From positions 61,196,001-61,260,000 of the forward strand of contig NC_086108.1 in the NCBI RefSeq assembly GCF_963921235.1: a stretch of DNA of 64,000 bases. Direction: 5' to 3'. The position numbers and the translations under genes are program-made. Numbering within the stretch: position 1 is the first letter of the stretch; each line of letters begins with the position of its first letter. The stretch comes from Mobula hypostoma. Its lineage: Eukaryota. The notes below the pieces were generated by a model. The model saw nothing but the letters and a program-made list of their open reading frames with translations. It was not told the origin of the DNA and did no database searches. Positions 1,384 through 62,600 of this stretch are shown here, piece by piece.

Positions 1384-2217
1384 TGTGACAAGAATACACA
1401 TAGATTACGATGTAGCTGTCCTGTGCTGGCACCAGTGGAATCAGCAGTTGGTCTGCCACCCAGGAGAGAGAGAGATAAGGAAAACAACGGAGCAGCATGT
1501 GGAGATGTTAATGAAGGAAGGAGAGCTGTCAAGATCGGCTCCCCCTTTGAACCCTGAACTGTTTGAAGTGATGGACAGGCGATACCCCAGCAGGGGGATA
1601 AAAAGGAACTGGTTCGCTAAGGCAGGACACACACGACACCCGAGGTAACAAGACCCTGGAAGCGGTGCGTGTCTCACAAGTCGGTGGGAAGTATCACGCC
1701 ATAAATGCACAGGGTGGAAAGGCACGATCGGCGGGAACCTGGTGTGTGTCCACCCTTGCCTGGGTGCCAGGTTCAGCGCAGGGAAACGATCGTATCTGGA
1801 AACGGAGGGGTCACGGTCAGTGACCTCAGATGATATCACAAAGGACTCACCCGACAGCTGACTGCGAAGGTCTGTGTGTGGAAGCCGTTTGAATATTCAT
1901 TCGTTTTTGCTCTTTCTCTCTTTCCCCCACATTGTCCATCTCCCACGGCAGCGATTACTGCGAACTGAACTGAACTTTGCGTCACTTTGAAACTGATCAT
2001 TTACCCCTAGACAACGATAGAGCTTGATTGATCCTGTTATCTGAATTCTGTGTACATGTATGTTTATCATTGCTGAACTGTTGCATTCATTATCCTTTTG
2101 ATTAGAGTACTGTGTTGCTTGTTTCTTTAATAAAACTTTCTTAGTTCTCGTAATCCAGACTCCAACTGAGTGATCCATTTCTGCTGGTTTGGCAACCCAG
2201 TTACGGGGTACGTAACA
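1384..2217 (+). repeat. 5' LTR
   Basis: TGTGACA...GTAACA, direct repeat of 5354-6187; AATAAA at 2129. Confidence 0.95.
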
Positions 2218-2249
2218 TAAGTGATTTATCTCGTCCGCGATTTTGAACG
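2218..2249 (+). promoter_or_regulatory. Damaged tRNA-Pro primer-binding site
   Basis: TAAGTGATTTATCTCGTCCGCGATTTTGAAC versus tRNA-Pro complement TGGGGGCTCGTCCGGGATTTGAAC. Confidence 0.6.
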
Positions 2250-2317
2250 CTAAATTCGGGACGGAGTAAATTGATTGGGTCAAAATTCCTGAAAGAAAGA
2301 AAAGACAAACAGCAGAA

Positions 2318-5173
2318 ATGGAGGCTGAGGAATTTATAAAGGCGCCGACCATGGAGGCATTAGAGGATGCCAGGAAATCGGAGTTGGTAGCTGTGGCCAA
2401 ACGGTTGAATCTTGCTAAGGGGAAGTCGACAATGAGGAGAGAGGAGATACACAGAGCTATCGTAGAGCACTATGTATCAAAAGGTGTGTTTCCCCAAGGC
2501 GAGCTGGAGGTGGTGTCTATTGAAAAACCTGCCGGAGACGCGGTACAGGTGCAGCTTGAAAAACTGAGACTCGAGCACGAGTTCCGGGTACGGCAGTTGG
2601 AGCGAGAAGAGGAGAGAGATTTAGAAAGGCAAGAGAGAGAGTTAGAAAGGCAAGAGAAAGAGAAAGAGTTAGAAAGGCAGGAGAGAGAGAGACAGTGGGA
2701 GCGAGAGGAGAAACAGAGGGAAAGGGAATTCGAGCTGGAGAAGTTAAGGTTAAGGGCGAAGCAGGGGCTCGTGCCGAACCAAGGTGGAGGGTTCCGGGCG
2801 ACCCAGGAGGTTAGGCTGGTTCCCCCATTTGACGATACCGACGTGGATTGGTACTTTCTCCATTTTGAAAAAGTGGCTACAAGTCAGGACTGGCCGAGGG
2901 ATAAGTGGGTTGTTTTACTTCAGAGTGTACTGAAAGGGAAAGCCCAACAAGCTTACTCAGCTTTGTCCACGGAAGATGCCCAGAAGTATGAGGTGGTGAA
3001 AGGGGCCATCCTCAGGATTTATGAGTTGGTCCCGGAGGCATACCGGCAGAGGTTCCGGAATGCGAGGAAGCAGTGGGACCGCACGTATTTGGAGTTTGCC
3101 CGTGAGATGCAGACATATTGTGAGCGTTGGTGCGCCTCGAAGGGGGTAGAGGGGGATTATGACAGATTGCTGCAGCTGACCCTGATCGAGCAGTTTAAAG
3201 GTTGTGTCCCTGAGGGTATGAGACCCTACCTAGATGAGAAAGAGGCAGCCACGTTAGCCGCAACTGCTAAGTTAGCGGATGAGTATGCGTTGACGCATAA
3301 AATGAAGTTTGCCCCGAGTAAAGGCTACCAGAAGGGAAGTCAGGATGGCGGGGAGAGTCTGCTGGAAAAGTCAGAAAGTAGGCCGGGGACTAGTGAGAAG
3401 GATAAGGTAGACCGGGAGCAGTCTAGTAGGAAGTCTCCTGGGGTCATCTGTTATAATTGCGGGAAAGTCGGACACTTTGCGTCCAGGTGCTTTGCCCCAA
3501 AGAAGGAGACGGGAAAAGGAAAAACGGCGATTTTGACTGGCTGTATTGAGCTGGTAAACGAACCGCTAGGGAAGGACAGGTCTGCCAAAGTTCAGGAAGG
3601 GTGCGAGAGGTTTATCTCGGCCGGATTGGTGTCAGTGAAGGAGGGGTTAAACCCAGTTCCAGTGCGGATCTGGAGAGACACGGGAGTGTGTCAGTCACTG
3701 ATACTGAAGAGTGTATTAGAGTTTAGCTCAGAGGCCCAGACTGGGGAGGTCAAGGTCAAAGGTATTGGGGGATGGACAGAGACAGTCCCTTTGCACCAGG
3801 TACACTTACAAAGCAACCTGGTCTCTGGACTAGTCACGATCGGGGTGAGGTCCGAATTACCGATGAAAGGCGTGGAAGTCTTGCTCGGTAATGACGTCGC
3901 CAGGGGAATCGTGTTCCCAGCCGTGAGATTGACAGGTCAGCCTGCCAGCATTGAGGCCCCGCCCATGGACTCACAGGTTCATCATGGGACCGCGGTAGTA
4001 AATTTAGCTGAGACGTTTCTGCCAGCCTTGTACGAGAAGGGGGTAGAAAGTGAAAAGAAGGAGTGCAGTGAGACAAGAGGTAGTGAGGGAGCTGAGATAG
4101 ACTTAGCATTAGCCAGGAAAGAATTTATGCAGGCACAGGAGCGAGACGAGGGGCTGATGGTTTTGGTGGAGGAGGAAGTGCTAAGGAAGAAAGGGAAACC
4201 AAGTACCGTACCCGCAGATGAGGAATGGGGGGTGGTGCAAAAGAGTTATGGGGATGAGATTTTTAACCTGGCCCACAAGGTACCCCCCGGTGGACAATTT
4301 GCGGTGCTGGAGGAAACAGCTGGTGGAATCACGAAAGAGGTTTACCGGCTGCCCAGGAGGAAGGATGTTATTGATTATGACCGACGCGAACTGAGACGAT
4401 CACAGGCTTTTGATATGCTAACAAACCTAGGCGGTGTTAGCGCGGAAATCAATGAAGCTAGGGTCCCCCTGATAAGAGAAAAAAACCATTTTGAAAAGAT
4501 GAGTATGGTATCGACTAGATGGGAGAAGGCTATTGTTTTGGCCAGCTCTGCTGATAAGGTCTCTCCCTTAATCCCCGAACAAAGCGACTCTTTAGGAGAA
4601 GTAATTAAACGACTCGCACCTGTGTGTTTGATTGTCCCAAGGCGATGCAAAGAACTAGGACATTGGGTGGTGTCTGTTACAGTAGGTCAGTCTAGCAAGC
4701 AACATCCGTGTGGAATGAGTCAATCAGTGACTAAAGGGCTGACGAACACAGAGGTGTGTATTGGCAATTTATTACGGCTGTCTGAAGCCAGCTTAAGAGT
4801 GAACCTCGGAAAAAATGAGTTCGGCCACACGAAGGTCACTTATCTGGGAATTGTGTTGTCACAGGGGCAGCTGGCAGCGATGCAAGCTACAGTGCAGGCT
4901 ATCGCTGACCTCCTAACCCCGACAGACAAGAGGGCCCTCAGAAGGCTCTTGGAGATGGTGGGGTACTGTAGGAAGTTTTGCAATAACTCTGCGGTCACTA
5001 CCCCTCCCCCTCCTACTAAGCCCTTGCGAGAGAAAACTAAGTCGGAATGGGACGACCCTTGTTATTGTGGTCCGGGACAAAACCAAATGAGAGGTTACAT
5101 TGATCGCAATTCATCAGTGTTTTTGGCCACTATGAAGTTTGCTAAGTTGGAGCCTAGCCTAAAGGATTATTAA
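2318..5173 (+). CDS. Retrotransposon Gag-protease polyprotein with remnant IN/RT (951 aa)
   Basis: E/R coiled coil; SCAN-like capsid (LVPEAYRQRFR...EQF...LADEY, ~3026-3290); CYNCGKVGHFASRC knuckle (3449-3490); protease RDTG (3677) and LLGND; LAHKVPPGG integrase remnant; VTYLG and MVGYCRKF RT remnants. Confidence 0.9.
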   Translation: MEAEEFIKAPTMEALEDARKSELVAVAKRLNLAKGKSTMRREEIHRAIVEHYVSKGVFPQGELEVVSIEKPAGDAVQVQLEKLRLEHEFRVRQLEREEERDLERQERELERQEKEKELERQERERQWEREEKQREREFELEKLRLRAKQGLVPNQGGGFRATQEVRLVPPFDDTDVDWYFLHFEKVATSQDWPRDKWVVLLQSVLKGKAQQAYSALSTEDAQKYEVVKGAILRIYELVPEAYRQRFRNARKQWDRTYLEFAREMQTYCERWCASKGVEGDYDRLLQLTLIEQFKGCVPEGMRPYLDEKEAATLAATAKLADEYALTHKMKFAPSKGYQKGSQDGGESLLEKSESRPGTSEKDKVDREQSSRKSPGVICYNCGKVGHFASRCFAPKKETGKGKTAILTGCIELVNEPLGKDRSAKVQEGCERFISAGLVSVKEGLNPVPVRIWRDTGVCQSLILKSVLEFSSEAQTGEVKVKGIGGWTETVPLHQVHLQSNLVSGLVTIGVRSELPMKGVEVLLGNDVARGIVFPAVRLTGQPASIEAPPMDSQVHHGTAVVNLAETFLPALYEKGVESEKKECSETRGSEGAEIDLALARKEFMQAQERDEGLMVLVEEEVLRKKGKPSTVPADEEWGVVQKSYGDEIFNLAHKVPPGGQFAVLEETAGGITKEVYRLPRRKDVIDYDRRELRRSQAFDMLTNLGGVSAEINEARVPLIREKNHFEKMSMVSTRWEKAIVLASSADKVSPLIPEQSDSLGEVIKRLAPVCLIVPRRCKELGHWVVSVTVGQSSKQHPCGMSQSVTKGLTNTEVCIGNLLRLSEASLRVNLGKNEFGHTKVTYLGIVLSQGQLAAMQATVQAIADLLTPTDKRALRRLLEMVGYCRKFCNNSAVTTPPPPTKPLREKTKSEWDDPCYCGPGQNQMRGYIDRNSSVFLATMKFAKLEPSLKDY

Positions 5174-5341
5174 TAACACATATAAAAGGAACAGAAAATG
5201 TGATGGCTGACTGTCTGTCAGGTGTTGACAACTTCAAACTCGCTATATTAGCCAAATAGCTGATAAAGATGTATATTTGTGTGTGTATCAAATAATGTAT
5301 TCATGTTTGTAATTTTTACCCCCCCCCCGGTAAAAATCCTT

Positions 5342-5353
5342 AAAGGGGGGAAG
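5342..5353 (+). promoter_or_regulatory. Polypurine tract
   Basis: AAAGGGGGGAAG immediately before the 3' LTR. Confidence 0.85.
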
Positions 5354-6187
5354 TGTGACAAGAATGCACATAGATTACGATGTAGCTGTCCTGTGCTGGC
5401 ACCAGTGGAATCAGCAGTTGGTCTGCAACCCAGGAGAGAGAGAGAGATAAGGAAAACAATGGAGCAGCATGTGGAGATGTTAATGAAGGAAGGAGAGCTG
5501 TCAAGAGTGGCTCCCCCTTTGAACCCTGAACTGTTTGAAGTGATGGACAGGCGATACCCCAGCAGGGGGATAAAAAGGGACAGGTTTGCTAAGGCACACA
5601 AACGACACCCGAGGTAACAAGACCCTGGAAGCGGTGCGTCTCTCACAAGTCGGTGGAAAGTACCGGGCCATAAACGCACAGGGTGGAAAGGCACGATCGG
5701 CGGGAACCTGGTGTGTGTCCACCCTTGCCTGGGTGCCAGGTTCAGCGCAGGGAAACGATCGTATCTGGAAACGGAGGGGTCACGGTTGGTGACCTCAGAT
5801 GATATCACAAAGGACCTGCCCGACAGCTGACTGCGAAGGTCTGTGTGTGGAAGCCGTTTGAATATTCATTCGTTTTTGCTCTCTCTCTCCTTCCCCCACA
5901 CTGTCCATCTCCCACAGCAGCGATTACTGCGAACTGAACTGAACTTTGCGTCACTTTGAAACTGGTCATTTGCCCCTAGACAACCATTAGAGCTTTATTG
6001 ATCCTGTTATCTGAATTCTGTGTACATATATGTTTATCATTGCTGAACTGTTGCATTCATTATCCTTTTGATTAGAGTACTGTGTTGCTTGTTTCTTAAA
6101 TAAAACTTTCTTAGTTCTAGTAATCCAGACTCCAACTGAGTGATCCACTTTCACTGGTTTGGCAACCCAGTTATGGGGTACGTAACA
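5354..6187 (+). repeat. 3' LTR
   Basis: TGTGACA...GTAACA followed by GAGG TSD. Confidence 0.95.
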
Positions 6188-6191
6188 GAGG

Positions 6192-7500
6192 AATGAGGAG
6201 AACCAGGAAGAATTTTAAAATCTGAATGAGAATTTTCAAAACAGGACATCATTAAATTGGGAAATGGTGTAGGTTAGAAAATACAAGGCTAATGGAAAGG
6301 TGGGATTGGTGCATGCCAGAACATTTGGGGCAAAATTTGCATGATCTGAATTTTACAGTGTGTATAAAGAGACCACTCAGAAGGGCATTGGAATAGTCAT
6401 GTCTCGTGATAACAACCAATGAAGTGGCCACAGTGTTGTTGAGGTGAAATTAAGGCAGCCACTGTAATGGCAGGTAAAATGTAGGTCAAATGTGTTATCA
6501 AGCAGCCTGTTTGGTTTCAGAAAGTTTCTGGCAAGAATGGTGTAGCTCCAGGAAATGAATTCTGCAAATGGAACTACTGGCAAGTCTTGATCATGCCTGA
6601 ATTAATTGGAAATGTCTCCTCATCCATAAATGTGTTTGAAAGTTTAGAGCTGGGGTGGGTCAGAAAGGGTGATAATTATTTAAAATTGTGTCTTTTCAGA
6701 GTCCATATAGAAATTGATATTTCTGGATGAGGATCAACATGTAAATGAAAGGGCCAGGATTTATCTTTGAAGGACATAAAGGCATCCAAAAACAAGCCAT
6801 CGTTAGTAATTCTTTGCTCAGGGCTGGATAGAAGGAACTGAGCAAAGCAGCCCCAGCAACTAGAAGACTGTGTAGAAGCACTGAGAGACGCAACCGCGAT
6901 CAATGACTGAAGATGAAGCCTTTGTCACCATCATACAGAATACCATAGCTGACTTTGGCTGGAACTGCTACAGTGTTATGGCAGGAAATGAAACCTAATT
7001 GACCGTATTAAATCAAGAAGTTCCAAGTGCAAGACTCTGGGGAGTAATGATGTCCTAATTTAAAAATTCTCATCCGGATTTTAAAATTCTTCCTGGTTCT
7101 CATCATCCCTCTGATTGCGATCCCTTACTCGTCACTGGATATAATCACTCCACTTCAGAAGGAACATGTGTGGCTTCAAGGTGTCCAAACCCTAGATTTT
7201 AGAATTCCCTCACTGAACACCTTTGCCTTTCTAGCTCTCCTTCCTTCTTTGAAGCACAGCTTAACCTATCACATCACTTTAACCAAGGATGTGTGATCTG
7301 TCCTCCTGCCCTCTCATTTCCAAGCTACACCTCATCAAAAGACATGACACCAGTTTCAACACTGACAGAACTAAATTTTACCTCATCTCCATTTCTCAAA
7401 ACTATTTCCAGAATCTTGTTTTCTGTTTATTTACATCTCACTGAATCTTGGGAACTTTTTGTTATTTCAAAGGCACTACAGAAATAGATGCTATTGTGGG
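6192..7500. mobile_element. Ancient L2-like LINE relics in both orientations
   Basis: Degenerate; L2-like 3' end (AAAGGCACTACAGAAATAGATG) near 7470; 7045-7217 is inverted relative to the LTR element flanks. Confidence 0.35.
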
Positions 7501-16324: not shown

Positions 16325-17217
16325 TGTGACGAGAATACACATTAAGATGAAAATTAAGATGTTTGCTGGCCTGGGCTAGCACCAGTGGCATCAGCAGTTG
16401 GTCTGCCACCTGTCCTCAGGGGAGGGAGAGATAAGGAACACAATGAAGCAGCATTTGGAGATGTTAATGAAGGAGCCATCAGTCTGGGTATTGTCAAGAT
16501 CGGCTCCCCCTTTGACCCCTGAACTGTTTGAAGTGTGATGGACAGGCGATACCCCAGCAGGGGGATAAAAAGGGACAGGTTCGCTAAGGCAGGACACACA
16601 CGACACCACGAGGTAACGAGACCCTGGAAGCGGTGCCCCCCCACAAGTCGGCGGGAGTCATTAAGAAGGCTGGTTGCGGAACCAAGCCATAGACACACAG
16701 GGTGGAAAGGTACGATCAGCGGGAACCCGGTGTGTGTCCACCCTTGCTTGGGTGTCAGGTTCACTGCAGAGGATCGACCGCATCTGGAGGAGGGGTCACA
16801 GTCGGTGACCTCAGGTGACATCACAAAGGACTCGCCCGAAAGCTGCTTGTGAGCAATATCGCAGGTCTGGGAGTGGAAGCCGTTTTGAATGATTATTCGT
16901 TCTTGTTCTCTCTCTCCTTCCCCCACGTTGTCCATCGCCACGGCAACGATTACTGCGAACTGAACTAAATTGGACTGAACTTTGCGTCACTTTGAAATTG
17001 GTCATTTACCCCTAGACAACGATAGAGCTTGATTGATCCTGTTATCTTAATTCTGTGCACATGTGTGTTTATCATTGCTGAACTGTCGCATTTATTATCC
17101 TTTCGATCACTGTGTTGCTTGTTTCTTTAATAAAACTTTCTTAGTTCTAGTACTCCAGACTCCAACTGAGTGATCCATTTCTGCTGGTTTGGCAACCCAG
17201 TTACGGGGTACGTAACA
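16325..17217 (+). mobile_element. Solo LTR of the same Gypsy family
   Basis: TGTGAC...GTAACA, ACAG TSD on both sides, colinear with the LTRs at 1384 and 5354. Confidence 0.95.
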
Positions 17218-19335: not shown

Positions 19336-20279
19336 CTACAACAATAAACACAGTAATATGTATAGAAGAAATGCAATATGCCAAAGAAATGTATGACGGC
19401 AGGTCTGGCCATTATTTGGTTGTTTAATGTCATCCTTCAGTATATTTAGATGTTGGTTTGCATGTTGGATTCATATTCTTTGCTGAACTAATAGATTGAT
19501 GCATATTTGATCAGTAGATAGGGAAGACCAATCGAAAGGGTAGGAACTTCTGGATTGCCACCTGTGCCACACGCCAGTGAGGGGAGAACCAGGATAATTT
19601 GGCAGATAGATGCGTGGCTGAGAAACCGGTGCAGGGGGCACGGCTTCAGGTTCTTGGATCATTGGGATCTCTTCTGGGGGAGGTATGACCTGTACAAAAG
19701 TGACGGGTTGCACCTGAATCTGAGGGGGACCAATATTCTCGCGGGCAGGTTTGTTAGAGCTGTTGGGGAGGGTTTAAACTGATTTGACAGGGATGTGGGA
19801 TCCAGAGTGAAGCGACTCAGTACAGGATGGATGGTAAAAAAGCAAATATAGCATGCAGTCAGACTTTCAGGAAAGGCAGGCAGATGATAGAACAAAATTG
19901 CAGCTAGCATGGTGAGTATCAGTGCATTCAGGATGCAGGATCAAAAAGGGCAGCAAATACAGCACTCAAAATGTTATATCTCAATGCATGGAGTGTAAAA
20001 AAAAGATCATGTTGCTCTGTTACAGATCGTCAGGTATGATGTTGTGGCCATCACTGACTCATGGTGAAAGGATGGTTGTAGTTGGGAACTGAATGTCCAA
20101 GGTGTTGTATTGGAGGGTGAGGAAGATAGGCAGAGGGGTTGGCGTGGCTCCGTAGGTAAAGAATGGCATGAAATCAGTGGAAAGGTGTGACACAGGATTG
20201 GAAGATGTTGAATTCTTGTGGGCTGAGTTAAGAAATTGCAAGGGTAAAAGGACCCTGATGGCAGTTATATACTGTACCG

Positions 20280-20468: not shown

Positions 20469-21964
20469 GATGACAACAGAGCAGCAATGACTTGAGTTTC
20501 TGAGAAAAATGAGGAAAGTGCGGGATAGGTGTATTCCAAAAACAAAGAAATACTCAAATGGCAAAATAGTACAACTGTGGCTGATAAGGGAAGCAAAGCT
20601 AATGTAAAAACGAAAGAGAGGGCATACAACAAAGCAAAAATCAGCAGGACGATAGAGGATTGGGAAACTTCTAAAAACCTACAGAAAGCAACTGAAAGAA
20701 TCATTAGGAGGGAAAAGATGAAATATGAAAGCAAACTAGCAAACAATATTGAGGTTGATAGCAAAAGCTTTTTCAAGTATATAAAAAATAAGAGAGTTAA
20801 GAGTGGATATGGGACTGCTGGAGAAATAATAATGGGGTCAAAGAGATGACAGATGAACTAAATGAGTATTTTGCATCAGACTTGACTGTGGAAGACACTA
20901 GCAGTGTGCAAGGTGTTGAAGGGTGTGAGGGAAGAGAAGTGAGTGCAGTTACTATTACAAGAGAGAAGGTGCTCAAAAAGCTGAAAGACCTAACGGTACA
21001 CAAGTCACCCAGACCAGATGAACTGTACCCTAAGGTTCTAAAAGAGTTAGCAATAGAGATTATGGAGGCATTAGTAATGATCTTTCAAGAATCAATGGAC
21101 TGGCATGGTGTCAGAAGACTAGAAAATTGCAAATGTCATTCCATTCTTTAAGAAAGGAGGAAGGCAGCAGGAAGGAAATTGTAGACCCATTAGCCAGACC
21201 TCAGTGGTTGGGAAGATCTTGGAGTCAATTGTTAAAGATGAGGTTATGGAGTACCTGGTGACACAGGACAAGATAGGACAAAGTCAGCATGGTTTCCTTA
21301 AGGGAAAATCTTATTTGACAAAGCTGATGGAATTCTTTGAGGAGATTTCACGTAGGATAGATAAAGGGAAAGTAGAGGATGTTGTATATTTGAAATTTCA
21401 GAAGGCCTTTGACAAGGTGCCACACATGAAACTGCTTACCAACGTAAGAGTCGATGGTATTACAGCGTATTTACTGGCATGGTTAGAGCATTGGCTGATT
21501 GGTAGGAGGCAGTGAGTGGGAATAAAAGGATTCTTTTCTGCCAGTCAGCGACTAGTGGTGTTGCACTGGGGTTGGTGTTGGGAGTGCTTTTTTTAAACGC
21601 TGTATATCAATAATTTAGATGATGGAATAGATGGCTTTGTTGTCAAGTTTACAGATGATATGAAGATTGCTGGAGGGCAGGTAGTGTTGAGGAAACAGGA
21701 AGGCTGCCGAAGGACTTGGACTGATTAGGAGAATGAGCAAGAAATTGCAAATGAAATACATTGTTGGAAAATGCATGGTCATGCACTTTGGTTGCAGAAA
21801 TAAATATGCAGACTATTTTCTAAATGGGAAGAAAATCCAAAAATCTGAGTTGCAAAGGGACTTAGGAGTTCTTGTGCAGGACATCCTAAAGGTTAACTTG
21901 CAAGTTGAGTTAGTGGTGAAGAAGGGAAATGCAATATTAGCACACATTTCAAGAGGACTAGAAT

Positions 21965-23124
21965 ATAAGAACTAAGAAATTGGAGCAGGAGTAGGCCATC
22001 TGGCCCCTTGATCCTGCTCAGCAATTCAATAAGATTATGGCTGATCTGACCATGGACACATCTCCAACTACCTGCCTTTTCCCCATAACCCTTAATTCCC
22101 CTAGTATGCAAATCTCTACCTAACCTTGTCTTAAATATATTTACTGAGGTAGCCTCCAGTGCTTCATTGGGCAGAGAATTCTACAGATCCACCACTCTCT
22201 GGGAAAAGCAGTTCCTCCTCATCTCCATCCTAAATCTAGTTCCAGAATCTTGAGGCTATGTTCCCCAGTTCTAGTCTCACCTACCAGTGGAATCAACTTC
22301 CTTTCCTCTTTCTTATCTATCCCTTTCATAATTTTATGTTTCTATAAGATCTCCTCTCATTCTAATGAATGCTAGCAAGTATAGTCGCAGGCAACTCAAT
22401 CTCTCCTGATAGTCTAACCCCTTCTTCTCTGGAATCAACCTGGTGAACCTCCTCTGCACTGCCTCCAAAGCAAATATGTCCTTCCTCAAGTAAGGAGACC
22501 ATGACTGCATGCAGTACTCCAGCTGTGGCCTCACTAGTACTCTGTACAGTTTCAACGTAACCTCCCTGCTCTTAAATTCAATCCCACTAGCAATGAAGGC
22601 CAACATTGCATTTGCCTTCTCGATAGTCTGCTGCACCTGTAAATCAATCTTCTGTGATTCATGCACAAGCACTCCCAAGTCCCTCTGCACAGCAGCAAGC
22701 TGCAATCTTTTTTACCATTTAAATCATAATCTGTTCTTTCATTTTCCTTTCAAAGTGGTTGACCTCACATTTACCAACATTGTACTCCATCTGCCAGATC
22801 CTTGCCCACTCACTTAACCTACCTTTAACTCTCTGCAGATTCTCCTTATCTTTTGCACAATTTGCTTTTCCACTCAATTTAGTATCATCAGCAAACTTTG
22901 ATACACTACACTCGGTCCCCTCTTCCAGATCGTTAATGTTTATCATGAACAGTTGCGGGCCCAGCACCGACCCCTGCAGCACATCGCTCACCACTGATTG
23001 CCAACCAGAGTAACACCCGTGCATTACAACTCTCTGCTTTCTATTAGTTAACCAATCCTCTATCCATGCTAATATATCACCCCGAACTCTATGTATTCTT
23101 ATCTTATGAATAAGTCTTTTATGC
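21965..23124 (-). mobile_element. CR1 3' fragment nested in the plus-strand CR1
   Basis: QGSVLGPQLF, SKFADDTK, LVRPQLEYC on minus; host CR1 resumes at GATGTGATGCTG. Confidence 0.9.
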
Positions 23125-23822
23125 AGATGTGATGCTGAAGCTTTATAAGGCATTGGTGAGGCCTCACCTTGAATATTGTGAACAGTTTTGGGCTCCTTAT
23201 CTAAGAAAAGATGTGCTGGCATTGGAGAAGGTTCCGAGGAGGTTCACAAGGATGATTCTGGGAATGAAAGGGTTATCATACGAGGAACGTTTGATGGCTT
23301 TGGGCCTGTACTTGCTGGAATTTAGATGGATGAGGGGAATCTCGTTGAAGCCTTTTGAACGTTGAAAGGTCTCTGCAGAGAAGATGTGTGAAGAATGTTT
23401 CGTATCGTGAGAGAGTCTGGGACAAGAGGGCACAACCTCAGGATCGAGGGGCGTCCATTTAAAACAGAGATGCAGAGAAATTTCTTTAGCCAGAGGGTGG
23501 TGAATTTGTGGAATTTGTTATAGCTGTGGAGGCCAGGTTGTTGGGTGTATTTAAGGCAGGGATTGATAAGTTCTTGATTGGACATGGATGGTATGAAAGA
23601 TTATGGGGAGAAGGCTGGAGAGTGGGGCTGAGGAGGGGAAGAAAGGGTCAGCTATGATAGAATGTGGAGCAGACTTGATGGGCCAAATGACCTAATTCTT
23701 ATGGTTTTATGGACTTGGCACTTTTGTGCTAGAAAGGGAAAAGAAACCCAACTCTTGATTTTCATTGACCGAACTGCACATGTAACAGAATTAATCTCAG
23801 TCATGAGTATGTGCACCACACA

Positions 23823-53958: not shown

Positions 53959-55652
53959 TGTTACGTACCCCGTAACTGGGTTGCCAAACCAGCAGAAATG
54001 GATCACTCAGTTGGAGTCTGGAGTACTAGAACTAAGAAAGTTTTATTAAAGAAACAAGCAACACAGTAACCGAAAGGATAATAAATGCAACAATTCAACA
54101 ATGATAACCACACATGTGCACAGAATTAAGATAACAGCATCAATCAAGCTCTATCGTTGTCTAGGGGTAAATGCCCAATTTCAAAATGACTCAAAGTTCA
54201 GTCCAGTTTAGTAGTTCAGTTCGCAGTAATCGTTGCCATGGCGGTGGACAACGTGGGGGAAGAGAGAGATAGAATAGGAACAACTCATCATTCAGAACGG
54301 CTTCACTCACAGACCAGCAAGATGGCTCACAGACCAGCGAGATGGTTCACAAACAGCTTTTGGGCGGGTCCTTGGTGATAGAAACATAGAAACATAGAAA
54401 ATAGGTGCAGGAGTAGGCCATTCGGCCCTTCGAGCCTGCACCGCCATTTATTATGATCATGGCTGATCATCCAACTCAGAACCCAGCCTTCCCTCCATAC
54501 CCCCTGACCCCTGTAGCCACAAGGGCCATATCTAACTTCCTTTTAAACATAGCTAATGAACTGGCCTCAACAGTTTGCTGTGGCAGAGAATTCCACAGAT
54601 TCACCACTCTCTGTGTGAAGAAGTTTTTCCTAACCTCGGTCCTAAAAGGCTTCCCCTCTATCCTCAAACTGTGACCCCTCGTTCTAGACCTCCCCAACAT
54701 CGGGAACAATCTTCCTGCATCTAGCCTGTCCAATCCCTTTAGGATCTTATACGTTTCAATCAGATCCCCCCTCAATCTTCTAAATTCCAACGAGTACAAG
54801 CCCAGTTCATCCAGTCTTTCTTCATATGAAAGACCTGCCATCCCAGGAATCAATCTGGTGAACCTTCTTTGTACTCCCTCTATGGCAAAGATGTCTTTCC
54901 TCAGATTAGGGGACCAAAACTGCACACAATACTCCAGGTGTGGTCTCACCAAGGCCTTGTACAACTGCAGTAGTACCTCCCTGCTCCTGTACTCGAATCC
55001 TCTCGCTATAAATGCCAGCATACCGTTCGCCTTTTTCACCGCCTGCTGTACCTGCATGCCCACTTTCAATGACTGGTGTATAATGACACCCAGGTCTCGT
55101 TGCACCTCCCCTTTTCCTAATCGGCCACCATTCAGATAATAATCTGTTTTCCTATTTTTGCCACCAAAGTGGATAACTTCACATTTATCCTGATGTCACC
55201 TGAGGTCACCGACTGTGACCCCACCTCCAGATGCGGTCGATCCTCTGCAGTGAACCCGGCACCCAGGCAAGGGCGGACACACACCGGGTTCCCGCTGATC
55301 GTACCTTTCCACCCTGTGCGTTGTCCGGTACTTCTCACCACTCGTGAGAGGCGCACCGCTTCCAGGGTCTCGTTACCTCGGGTGGCGTGTGTGTCTGTCT
55401 TAGCGAACCTGTCCCTTTTTATCCCCCTGCTGGGGTATCGCCTGTCCATCACTTCAAACAGTTCAGGGTTCAAAGGGGGGAGCCGCTCCAGACAGCTCTT
55501 CCTCCCACATCCCTTCATTACACATCTCCAGACGCTGCTCCATTGTTCCTTATCTCTCCTTCCCCTGAGGGCAGGTGGCAGACCAACTGCTGATGCCACT
55601 GATGCTAGCCCAGGCCAGCAAACATCTTAATTTTATGTGTATTCTCGTAACA
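53959..55652 (-). mobile_element. Solo LTR of the same Gypsy family, split by a CR1 insertion
   Basis: Reverse complement of the 16325 LTR type; halves 53959-54379 and 55191-55652. Confidence 0.93.
54380..55190 (-). mobile_element. Young 5'-truncated CR1 LINE
   Basis: Uninterrupted 209-aa ORF2 C-terminus (54476-55105), (TTTCTATG)n tail, TGAT duplicated at both junctions. Confidence 0.95.
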
Positions 55653-58392: not shown

Positions 58393-59601
58393 AAAGTTCA
58401 AAGTTCAACGTAAAAATTACTATCAGAGTACATACATGTCCCCACATACAACCCTGAGACTTAGCAAATCTATAGAACAGTAACTAAACAATGGACAACA
58501 AGCCGTGCAAATACAGATCTAAATAAATGACAATAAATAATGAGCAAAAAATAACAAGATAAAAGAGTCCTTAAGTAAGTGTAGTTATCCCCATTTGTTC
58601 AAGGTTGAGGGGTAGTAACTGTTCTTGAACCTGGTGGTGCGAGTCCTGAGCCATTTGTACCTTCTACCTGATGGCAGCAGTGAGAAAAGAGCACGGCCTG
58701 GGTGGTGAGGATCTTCGATGATGGATGCTGCTTTTCTACAGCAACATTTCATGTGGAAGTGTTCAATGGTTGGGAGAGGTTTACCCATGATGTACTAAGC
58801 CCTATCGACTACCTTTTGTAGGATTTTCTGCTCAAAGGCATTGGTGTTCCATACCAGGCTGTAATGCAGCCAGTCAGCACACTTTCCACCACACATCTAC
58901 AGATGTTTGCCAAAGTTTTTGATGACATGTCGTATCTCCGCAGACTCCTGAGAAAATAGAGGTGCTGTCATGCTTTCTTCACAATTATATTTATATGATG
59001 GGTCCAGGACAGGTCCTTTGAGATCGTGAGACACAGGAATTTAAACTCACTGACCCTCTCCACCTTTGATCTTCCGATGATTGCTAGCTCATGGACCTCT
59101 GGTTTCCCTCTCCTGAAGTCTACAATTAGCTCCTTGGTCTTATTGACATTGGGTGAGAGGTGGTTGTTATTACACCACTCAGCCAAGTTTTCAATCTCCC
59201 TTCTGTATGCTGATTCATCACCACCTTTGATCCAGCCCACAACAGTGGTGTCATCAGCAAACTTGTATATGGTGTTGGAGCTGTACTTAGCCACACAGTC
59301 ACAGGCGTAAAGCGAGTAGAGCAGGGGGATAAGTACACAACCCTGTGGTGCTCCTGCACAGGATTGTGGAGAGATATTTTTGCCAATCCAATCTGAATGT
59401 GGTCGACAAGTGAGAAAATTGAGAATCCAATTGAACGAGGGGCTATTGCAGCCCTGGTCTTGAAGTTTACTGATTAGTTTTTAGGGAGTGCTAGTGTTAA
59501 ATGCTGAACTGTAATCAATAAAGAGCATCTTGATGTATGCACCTTTGCTGTCCAGATGTCCCAGAACTGTGTGAAGAGCCAATGAATAGCATCTGCTGTA
59601 G
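58393..59601 (-). mobile_element. Rex1-type LINE, 3' part
   Basis: MLFIDYSSAFNT, IYKFADDTTVVG, LFSLLPSGRRY; (TTGAACT)-type tail. Confidence 0.9.
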
Positions 59602-62600
59602 GCATCGTTGCAGCGGCCATTGTCTGAGTGGACATAGTCAGCGTGGTGTTCGTAAGGCTTTGAGGCTTCAGTAAAGAAAGGGTTCACTCAGAGAAAGCAA
59701 AGGAAAGAAAAGCTAAGTTATTTTCCCCTTCTCTTCTTTATATCTGCTCAGCTAGGTAGAGATGGCAGGCAGGAAAATGCAATGCTCCTCTTACGGGATA
59801 TGGAAAGGCAGGGAGACCTATAGTACCCCCAACCACTACAACTGCGTTAAGGACACAAGAAATTGGGTGACAGTCAGGAATGGGAAAGGGGCTAAGGAGC
59901 CAGTGCAGAGCACCCCTGTAGTCATTACCCACAACAAGAGGTTCAGATACTGTCAAGGGGGTTGACCTAACAGAGGAAAGTCACAATCGTCAGGTCAAAG
60001 GGATGAGCACGGTGCAACAAAATCGAAAGGGTGAATACAGGACTGAAGGTGTTGTATCCGAATGGGTGCAGCGTACGGAATGCGGTAGGTGAACTTGCAG
60101 CACATTTGCCGATTGGCAGGTATGATGTTGTAGGCGTCATGGAATCATAGCTGAAAGAGGATTATAGATGGGAGCTTTATGTCCAAAGATACACATTGTA
60201 TCAAAAGGATATGCAGGAAGGCAGAGGGAGCAGTGTTGCTCTGTTCATAAAAAATGAAATCAAATCAAATCATTAGAAAGTGGTGACATAGGGTCAAAAT
60301 GTGTTGATTCAATGTAGATAGAACTAAGGAACTGCAAGGGTAAAAAAACTCTGATGGGAGTTGTATACAGACCCCCAAACAGTAGAAAGGATGTTGCCTA
60401 CAAATTACACTGGGAGATAGAAAATGCATGCCAAAAGGGCCATATTACAATAGTCATGAAGGACTTCAATATGTAGGTAGATTGGGAAAATCAGGTTGTT
60501 GCTGGATTACAAAAGAGGGAATTTCTAGAATGCCCATGAGCTGGCTTCTTACAGTAGCTCGTGGTTGAGCCCACCAGAGGATCAGCTATTCTGGATTGGG
60601 TGTTGTGCAATGAACCAGAATTGATTAGAGAGCTTGAGGTAGAAGAACCCTTTGGGGAAATTGATCATAATACGATCAAATTCTCCCTGAATTTTGAGAA
60701 GGAGAAGCTAAGGTCAGATGATTCAGTATTACAGTAGATTAAAGGGAATTATAGAGCCATGAGAGAGGAGTTGGCCAGAATTGATCAGAAAAGAACACTG
60801 GCAGAGATGACGGCAGAGCAGCAATAGCTGGATTTTCTAGAAGCAGTTCGGAAGGCACAGGGTATATACATCCCAAAGAGGAAGAGGTATTCTAATGGAA
60901 AGATGACACAACCATGGCTAACAAGGGAAGTCAAAGCCAATATAAAAGCCAAAGGGAGGGCATATAATAGAGAAAAGATTAGTGGAAAGTTAGAGGATTG
61001 GAAGGCTTTTAAAAATCAACAGAAGGCAACTGAAAAAATCATTAAGAAAGTAAAGGTGGAATACAAAAGTAAGCTTGCCAGTAATATTAAAGAGGATACA
61101 AAAGTTTCTTCCAATACATAAAGTGCAAAACAGAGGCAAAAGTGGATATTGGATCACTGGAAAAAGATGCTGGAGAGGTAGTAATGGGGGACAATGAAAT
61201 AGCAGACAAACTGAATAAGTATTTTGCCTTAGTTTTCACTGTGGAAGAGACACCAGTAGAATGGTGGAAGTTCCAGGTATCAGGAGGTATGATGTGTGTG
61301 AAGTTACATAACGAGAGAGAAGGTTCTTGGGTAACTGTAAGGTCTGAAGTGGTGGCTGAAGAGATTGTGGAGGCATTATTAATGATCTTTCAAGAATCAC
61401 TAGGTTCTGGAAGACTGGAAGATTGCAAATATCACTCCACTCTTCAAGAAAGGAGAGAAGCAGAAGAAAGGAAACTATAGGGAAGTTAGTTTGATCTCAG
61501 TGGTTGGGAAGATGTTGGAGTCGATTGTTAAGGATGAGGTCTCAGATTACTTGGAGGCACATGATAAAATAGGCCGTAGTCAGCATGGTTTCCTCAAAGG
61601 AAAATCTTGCCTGACAAATCTGTTGGAATTCTTTGAAGAAGTAACAAGTAGGATAGGCAAAGGAGAATCAGTTGATGTTGTAGACTTGGATCTTCAGAAT
61701 ACCTTTGACAAGGTGCAACAAATGAGGTTGCTTACAAGCTATGAGTCCATGGTATTACAGGAAAGATTCTAGCATGGATAAAGCAGTGGCTGATTGGCAG
61801 GAGGTAAAGTGTAGGAATAAAGGGAGCCTTTGCTGACTGGCTGCCAGTGACTAGTGGTATTCCACAGGGGTCTGTGCTGGACTGATTCTTTTTATGTTAT
61901 ATGTCAATGATTCAGATTATGTAATTGATGGCTTTCTTGCGAAGTTTGCAGATGATAAAAAGATAAGTGGAGGGGCAGGTAGTTTTGAAGAGGTAGAGAG
62001 GCTACAGAAGGACAGACAGATTAAGAGAATGGCCAAGAAATAGCAGATAGAATATAGTGTCAGGAAGTGTATGATCATGCACTTTGGTAGAAGAAATGAA
62101 AGGGTTGACTGTTTTCTAAATGAAGAGAAAATACGAAAAAGATTGAGGTGCAAAGGGACTTGGGAGAGTTTGTGCAGGATTCCCTAAAGGTTAATTTTCA
62201 GGTTGAGTCTGTGGTAAGGAAGGCAAATACGATGTTAGCATTAATTTTAAAAGGACTAGAATATAAAAGCAAGGATGTAATGTTGAGACTTTATAAAGCA
62301 TTGGTGAGGGCTCACTTGGAGTATTGTGAGCAGGTTTAGTCCCCTTATCTTAGAACGGAGTGCTGAAACTGGACAGGGTTCAAAGGAGATTCACGAAAAT
62401 GATTCCAGGATTGAATGGTTTGTCATATGAAGAGTGTTTGATGGCTCTGGGCCTGTATTCACTAGAATTCAGTAAATTGAGGAGTGACCTCATTAAAAAA
62501 CCTATCAAACAGTGAAAGGCCCTGATGAAGTGGACATGGAGAAGACGTTTCCTGTGATGGGAGAGTCTAGGACCAGAGGACACAGCCTCAGAATAGAATG

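Follow-up and report, generated by a model that had tools for sequence, protein, structure and literature searches.

The locus considered here raises the question of how a retroelement that has lost its enzymes can still carry one long open reading frame. The window, i.e., the whole stretch of 64,000 nucleotides of Mobula hypostoma DNA that was analysed, contains a complete Gmr1-like Ty3/Gypsy LTR element at positions 1384-6187. Its descent appears to be Gmr1-like, judging from the combination of a SCAN-type capsid with the order protease (PR), integrase (IN), reverse transcriptase (RT). Gmr1-like elements are described as having a SCAN capsid, PR, IN and RT/RNase H in that order (bioRxiv 10.1101/2025.03.03.638093), and the vertebrate SCAN domain as being derived from the C-lobe of their capsid (PMC8321522; bioRxiv 10.1101/2025.03.03.638093). 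The features of the element are as follows.

1380-1383, +, left target-site duplication (TSD) GAGG, from the flank comparison
1384-2217, +, 5′ LTR of 834 bp, TG...CA, with AATAAA at 2129
2218-2250, +, expected position of the primer-binding site, in the window copy without the usual TGG opener
2318-5173, +, single ORF of 951 aa (P0001), comprising Gag, protease and collapsed pol
2540-2761, +, coiled coil (aa 75-148) of charged repeats of variable length; pLDDT 86-95 over aa 81-140
2801-3301, +, two-lobed capsid (aa 162-328), from Pfam SCAN and VIA-align
3032-3301, +, SCAN domain, i.e., the capsid C-lobe, from Pfam
3446-3490, +, CCHC zinc knuckle (aa 377-391), from Pfam
3602-3937, +, aspartic protease region with DTG at 3677; near-invariant sites kept
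4109-4387, +, remnant of the integrase N-terminus, up to the first large junction (~4385), where ~290 residues including the whole DDE core are gone
4388-4720, +, last residues of the integrase, the linker between IN and RT, and the N-terminus of RT, up to the second junction (~4715), where ~126 residues are gone
4721-5062, +, RT palm/thumb remnant, with CIGN as catalytic motif at 4757 and a further 18-residue deletion
5063-5173, +, RNase H remnant after the third junction (~87 residues gone), and the stop shared by the family
5167-5220, +, RNase H C-terminal motif in another frame, beyond the stop
5342-5353, +, polypurine tract (PPT), directly before the 3′ LTR
5354-6187, +, 3′ LTR of 834 bp, with AATAAA at 6099
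6188-6191, +, right TSD GAGG

The TG...CA termini, the TSD and the PPT by which an LTR element is recognised are all present. The two LTRs are 4.1% apart (K2P 0.041), with 797 identities over 830 ungapped columns, 23 transitions, 10 transversions and 8 gap columns. The element has split a repeat of ~170 bp (1279-1383 and 6188-6254), and the insertion point is confirmed by an uninterrupted inverted copy of this repeat at 7045-7217, 0.8 kb downstream, with 81% identity. The ORF shows no internal stop over its 951 aa and remains open almost up to the PPT. In the tail region the other two forward frames contain 30 and 33 stops, and none of 2000 shuffles left the tail stop-free, which rules out a chance ORF. 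Rfam yields no match at the primer-binding-site position or elsewhere in the window; as this position lacks TGG, the window copy may itself be a dead end.

The Gag part of the ORF has the organization that was originally predicted for it, since the coiled coil, the SCAN-like capsid, the CCHC knuckle and the DTG motif (aa 454) are all borne out by Pfam, pLDDT and the positions of the motifs. The profile scan proposed along with that prediction gives SCAN (aa 239-328, E 3e-12) and zf-CCHC (aa 377-391, E 3e-7) as the only Pfam matches in the 951-aa ORF, with no match to RVP, rve or RVT_1. In the AlphaFold model of residues 1-540, a small helical N-domain is followed by a long coiled coil, the length of which differs between copies, and a two-lobed capsid. 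The top 16 rows of a VIA-align search with the Gag model are all retroelement capsids, with Z-scores of 7.2-9.6 that are middling for helical proteins; the best are PEG10 (9.6), MLV (9.3), Copia (9.2) and Arc (9.1). Foldseek finds no match to the Gag model at E≤0.001, the best being a weak one at E 0.02. The capsid is identified by the Pfam SCAN match together with the consistency of the VIA-align list. The protease was predicted to be intact, and this holds for its DTG motif and for its alignment (31 of 36 near-invariant sites kept), but Pfam misses the domain and its part of the model has low confidence (pLDDT <50). The N-terminal helical domain (P0001 aa 10-58, pLDDT mostly 64-81) matches the Rho RNA-binding domain (chain 1a62) with Z 6.7 and an rmsd of 1.7 over 48 residues, a middling Z, so that this likeness may serve as a lead only.

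Downstream of the protease, the pol region has collapsed. Relative to the full-length relative P0013, integrase residues 763-1050 and RT residues 1173-1298 are deleted, 18 more are missing from the palm, and a third deletion of ~87 residues removes connection and RNase H sequence. In sum, the integrase has lost ~290 residues, RT 126+18 and RNase H 87, and every one of these deletions preserves the frame. Aligned to P0013 and P0145, the remnants keep the same linear order, with IN before RT and RT before RNase H, which agrees with the IN-before-RT order read from this locus at the outset, and all matched pol pieces up to 5137 are in the frame of the ORF. They include the RT palm/thumb remnant (aa 800-915), with 43-46% identity to full-length relatives, and an IN-RT linker remnant that was placed by pairwise BLAST via P0139. 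None of the integrase HHCC and DDE core, the RT YxDD motif and an intact RNase H is found in the window copy, and its pol is unable to specify any of the three enzymes. As predicted, the DDE core is absent, the whole of it lying within the ~290-residue deletion, and the RT is cut down with CIGN (aa 814) at the YxDD position. The integrase zinc finger has indeed lost its second His and both Cys here, but the change of this His to Gln occurs only in the window copy and in P0136 among the 10 rows tabulated; one Cys lies inside the deletion, and the other is still present in P0139 and so decayed later. Similarly, the RNase H end (HIKG...CLS, 5167-5220) does lie past the stop in a different frame, but another short stretch of RNase H (5063-5137) is joined to the ORF in frame.

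The original prediction regarded several large deletions that all keep the frame as a sign of a propagated lineage. The deletions do keep the frame, but the IN and RT junctions sit on dipeptides found on both sides, as would be expected from template switching, and with such short in-frame repeats those two could be in frame without selection. Because the two large junctions are uninformative by themselves, the case for selection on the frame rests on the later indels and on the missing stops.

The best homologues of the ORF are Mobula RefSeq proteins with 79-84% identity. Thirty-six Mobula proteins were fetched, and the test for the junctions covered the 21 whose sequence extends into the pol remnant; of the remaining 15, 14 stop short of the IN junction, and P0012 has an intact IN start. 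The IN junction is common to 20 of the 21 tested proteins, the RT junction to 16 and the RNase H junction to 11, and the same stop is present in 11, which come from 10 contigs of two species. As the junction-bearing loci are on different chromosome-scale contigs, the deletions are not unique to this locus, and their recurrence rules out decay at a single locus. Together with the stronger conservation of Gag, this upholds the predicted propagation of a non-autonomous lineage that keeps its capsid. P0139, from M. birostris, shares the IN and RT junctions but is less decayed, and it retains the palm segment and one zinc-finger Cys; P0136, also from M. birostris, shares with the window copy an 18-residue linker deletion and the His to Gln change. 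Across the loci the RT motif reads YIDD (Pristis), YIGD, CIGD and CIGN, and the junction residue reads Cys, Gly and Asp, a series that would be expected from successive master copies, each propagated after further decay. Among young M. hypostoma copies, the identity per segment is 93-100%, which points to recent activity in this species. In a HMMER search of 1.84 billion representatives, only P0139 and P0006, both from Mobula, span a junction among the best 150 of 816 matches; P0012 matches the IN N-terminal part, and the remaining ones match only the RT palm/thumb region.

Within the window, tblastn finds no second coding copy. A solo LTR of the same family (893 bp, ~90% identical over the aligned columns) lies at 16325-17217 on the + strand with ACAG on both flanks. 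A third related LTR, at 53959-55652 on the - strand, is interrupted by an 875-bp LINE fragment and has no matching TSD; the letters after it, TAAG, resemble the beginning of the internal region. With three LTR loci of the family in 64 kb, the copy number is probably high. Copies of the element account for many gene models of Mobula, one of which is labelled as a MACC1 isoform. The ORF of the element is what P0002, P0010, P0128 and P0133 represent, although their RefSeq names refer to MACC1, phosphatidylserine decarboxylase, UBE2G2 and PPM1Lb; these models represent either insertions in or near those genes, or misannotation.

At the protein level, the capsid is approximately four times more conserved than the tail. 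At sites fixed in five young M. hypostoma copies, the window copy differs at 9 of 260 positions in Gag and at 46 of 318 in the tail (p=3.5e-6), and among nine copies the informative sites number 6/186 in Gag versus 25/241 in the tail (p=0.0045); the SCAN domain shows 0/84 in the conservation comparison. The picture for the protease is mixed, as it does not differ from the tail in the young-copy test (14/108 versus 46/318, p=0.75), but is slower in the nine-copy test (p=0.036). Neutral evolution of gag and protease among the copies is thus not what is observed at this level. Of the near-invariant sites, i.e., those with an invariance of ≥90% across 58 full-length relatives, the window copy retains 59/65 in the capsid, 5/5 in the nucleocapsid (NC), 31/36 in PR, 13/25 in the IN N-terminal part and 25/40 in RT.

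A comparable architecture is found in a second group of rays. P0014, P0015, P0017, P0025 and P0082, four of which are from the stingrays Hypanus and Hemitrygon, consist of gag-pro followed by an open tail of 212-323 residues. This tail shows no match to pol and is instead a decayed duplicate of the region from capsid C-lobe to protease (24-28% identity); the architecture is 72-76% identical among three loci of two genera. As the content of the tails differs, the devil-ray and stingray tails are of separate origin. In P0014 the stingray-type tail is joined to a gag-pro of another backbone, which points to recombination. A midpoint-rooted tree of capsid and protease sequences was built from 26 rows, with relatives that are unnamed or uncharacterised. 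In it P0012 is the sister of the Mobula group (99/97), and P0011 together with P0014 is the next, weakly supported sister (86/80). The remaining stingray rows make up a clade of their own (100/100), the elements with intact IN, P0011 and P0012, branch between the Mobula and stingray groups, and the full-length elements lie outside under midpoint rooting. P0016 contains the Gag-protease unit about three times in one frame of 1245 aa, which is either a tandem duplication or an assembly artefact.

Taken together, we consider it moderately probable that the element belongs to a long-lived, semi-autonomous devil-ray Gmr1-like family, which obtains RT and IN in trans and is under selection for continued translation of its tail. 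This reading builds on established features, i.e., LTR-type integration, a dead pol, deletions shared by many loci in two species, a conserved capsid, stepwise decay of motifs and an open frame. That the family is non-autonomous and propagated is nearly certain, and selection on the open frame of the tail is likely; given such selection, translation itself is a somewhat more probable target than a function of the tail protein. Translation is favoured because the motifs decay freely, no segment is consistently protected, the model (from a shallow alignment) is unfolded, and stingrays have an unrelated tail in the same place.

Replication of LTR elements requires RT, RNase H and IN, and a multi-copy family without these enzymes must therefore use a helper; RT and IN are presumably borrowed in trans. 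A full-length autonomous partner from Mobula is not present among the 120 matches listed of 566, a weak negative. Among the matches listed, the nearest relatives with intact IN are P0012 (M. birostris) and P0011 (Hypanus), both partial models, and of the full-length batoid elements one from Pristis comes closest, with 45% identity to P0012. In the proposed mechanism, the LTR transcript would be translated as a Gag-protease-tail protein, whose Gag would package its own RNA in cis, the protease probably being supplied as well. This Gag would co-assemble with the polyprotein of an autonomous Gmr1-like helper, the source of RT and IN. Selection on the tail would mainly concern the passage of ribosomes, with the stop kept near the 3′ end, rather than the amino-acid sequence, and the benefit might be RNA stability, avoidance of nonsense-mediated decay, or delivery of the RNA into particles in cis. 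Long 3′ UTRs trigger decay, and a stop directly after the protease would, as computed, give a 3′ UTR of 2161 nt in place of 926 nt. No direct demonstration of decay avoidance for an element of this kind was found in the literature, and this step is proposed here.

The openness of the tail might also have a trivial origin, with selection limited to Gag, or Gag and protease, and the tail evolving neutrally but remaining open through template-switch deletions at in-frame repeats, a small number of master copies and annotation bias. The dipeptides at the IN and RT junctions fit this explanation, as do the 14 Mobula proteins that end early and the composition of the sample, which consists of RefSeq proteins. 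Frame-broken ends shared between loci also exist: P0004 and P0005 share one ~100 residues early and P0006 and P0141 share one near aa 722, so that the tail may be dispensable in part. P0144, P0221 and P0222 have a common end early in the IN remnant, are on one contig and were left out of the count of frame-broken ends. What makes a neutral tail improbable is the number of changes that the frame has survived. P0139 and the window copy differ at 113 of 298 tail sites and contain zero stops, where 6.0 (raw) to 8.9 (tree) are expected neutrally (P 3e-3 to 1e-4), P0139 being a gene model known as protein and the frame of the window copy alone being verified in DNA. Moreover, 14 in-frame length changes after the protease are shared by at least two loci, against 2 shared frame-broken ends (P 1e-5), and upon removal of the two microhomology junctions the 12 further indels, of 1 to 87 residues, still give P 8e-5; since the other copies are annotated proteins only, the sample favours open frames, compensated frameshifts are invisible and these P-values are optimistic. 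In the window copy the frame of the pol remnants breaks only past the shared stop.

If the frame is under selection, the tail protein could have a residual task, for example by an RT-thumb or IN N-terminal remnant that would bind the helper polyprotein or the RNA of the element and pull enzymes into the particle, by analogy with the mouse element IAP 1Δ1. Consistent with such a task, the RT palm/thumb has fewer differences than the linker remnant (9/102 versus 20/97, p=0.026) in one test, although not in another, 25 of the 40 near-invariant RT sites are kept, 11 of 21 loci have a common C-terminus, and two of the three Gag-Pol linkers change faster than the tail. However, no tail segment stands out, with values of 0.12-0.19 among six diverse copies and 0.29-0.52 against P0139; the tail model has no confident fold (pLDDT 28, from a shallow alignment of 8 rows), the thumb is missing from two loci with a common early end, and the tail of the stingray elements is unrelated but in the same place. 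We regard a residual task as unlikely, albeit slightly less so than a neutral tail. Host domestication of the capsid, as for SCAN in tetrapods, which the original prediction offered as its other option, or usefulness to the host of the Gag of a young family, is very improbable. An intact SCAN-type capsid and the annotation of many Mobula loci as genes, several with isoforms, would fit it, and zebrafish Bik indicates that young multi-copy Gag elements can be host-essential (PMC12067270). Domestication is judged by synteny and selection (PMC8321522), but there is no sign of a single orthologous locus; instead the family is multi-copy and dispersed with near-identical young members, and the element retains both LTRs, only 4% apart, the PPT and the TSD, so that early capsid domestication finds no support.

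The semi-autonomous reading can be compared with several known systems. Full-length Gmr1-like elements (P0145 and P0234 of Pristis pectinata; P0013) have the same domain order in one ORF, as shown by the Pfam map of P0013, and are 38-42% identical over gag-pro-IN-N. Unlike these, the window copy lacks the IN core, the RT core, most of RNase H and the catalytic motifs, and cannot be autonomous. The closest functional precedent is IAP 1Δ1 of mouse, in which an in-frame internal deletion is reported to create a Gag-Pol fusion that aids retrotransposition in cis, with enzymes provided in trans (PMC7411935, PMC6466679); a cis effect of the ray element may be supposed by analogy. Both are in-frame Gag-Pol fusions made by internal deletion. 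IAP 1Δ1, however, is described as a retrovirus-type ERV with one deletion of 1.9 kb, in which part of gag is lost and Gag is needed in trans, whereas the ray element is a Gypsy element with a whole Gag and many successive deletions that form a series across two species.

Like the wheat elements RLG_Sabrina_SA (Gag-Pro) and RLG_Quinta (Gag and DUF1), which are considered semi-autonomous and proposed to provide Gag and borrow RT/INT (PMC9744471, PMC11302176), and like the plant TR-GAG elements, which are semi-autonomous LTR elements with a Gag ORF (PMC4350172), the ray element has a conserved Gag ORF, no functional RT/INT and many dispersed copies, here at the protein level. These are plant lineages without RT/INT coding sequence, whereas the ray element keeps the wreckage of IN, RT and RNase H fused in frame. 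Among vertebrates, Bhikhari of zebrafish (Bik-1, Bik-2) comprises non-autonomous LTR families that encode Gag and, as described, neither pol nor env, with a demonstrated developmental role (PMC12067270), whereas the ray element is known here from its sequence. Vertebrate SCAN zinc-finger proteins share the SCAN domain, but the ray element has no C2H2 array or KRAB and is still a whole mobile element. A semi-autonomous, Gag-keeping element in the Gmr1-like lineage or in rays was not found described in the open-access literature. Gag-keeping semi-autonomous elements as such are already known from plants, mouse and zebrafish; what was not found in that literature is the combination of a vertebrate Gmr1-like setting, a whole Gag, a long-decaying open pol, a graded series and a convergent sister case.

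The family thus provides a graded series, with a stepwise loss of enzyme function under a frame that remains open, plus a separately derived lineage for comparison. This makes the question raised by IAP 1Δ1, whether the fusion protein or the act of translation is kept, testable from public genomes. The family further illustrates one way in which a capsid of SCAN type becomes uncoupled from the enzymes, yet stays conserved and multi-copy, a raw state for host capture. More tentatively, and with some doubt, Gmr1-like elements in rays may have become suppliers of capsid and protease twice or more independently, each with a translated spacer of 200-400 codons of arbitrary content that would be selected for translated length and not for sequence. 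If true, selection on translated length would be a general rule for single-ORF retroelements, and possibly there would be a stable division of labour, in which surplus Gag is supplied that a helper making Gag and Pol at 1:1 cannot make.

In the remainder of the window, Pfam was run on 107 of the 111 other ORFs of at least 85 codons, and neither a host gene nor a helper was found among these 107. The matches consist of four LINE-type RT remnants (21123-21512, 22722-23243, 58971-59480 and 61404-61769) and one sub-threshold GDSL/esterase match (19522-19779), pieces that are expected from LINE decay in a repeat-rich region.
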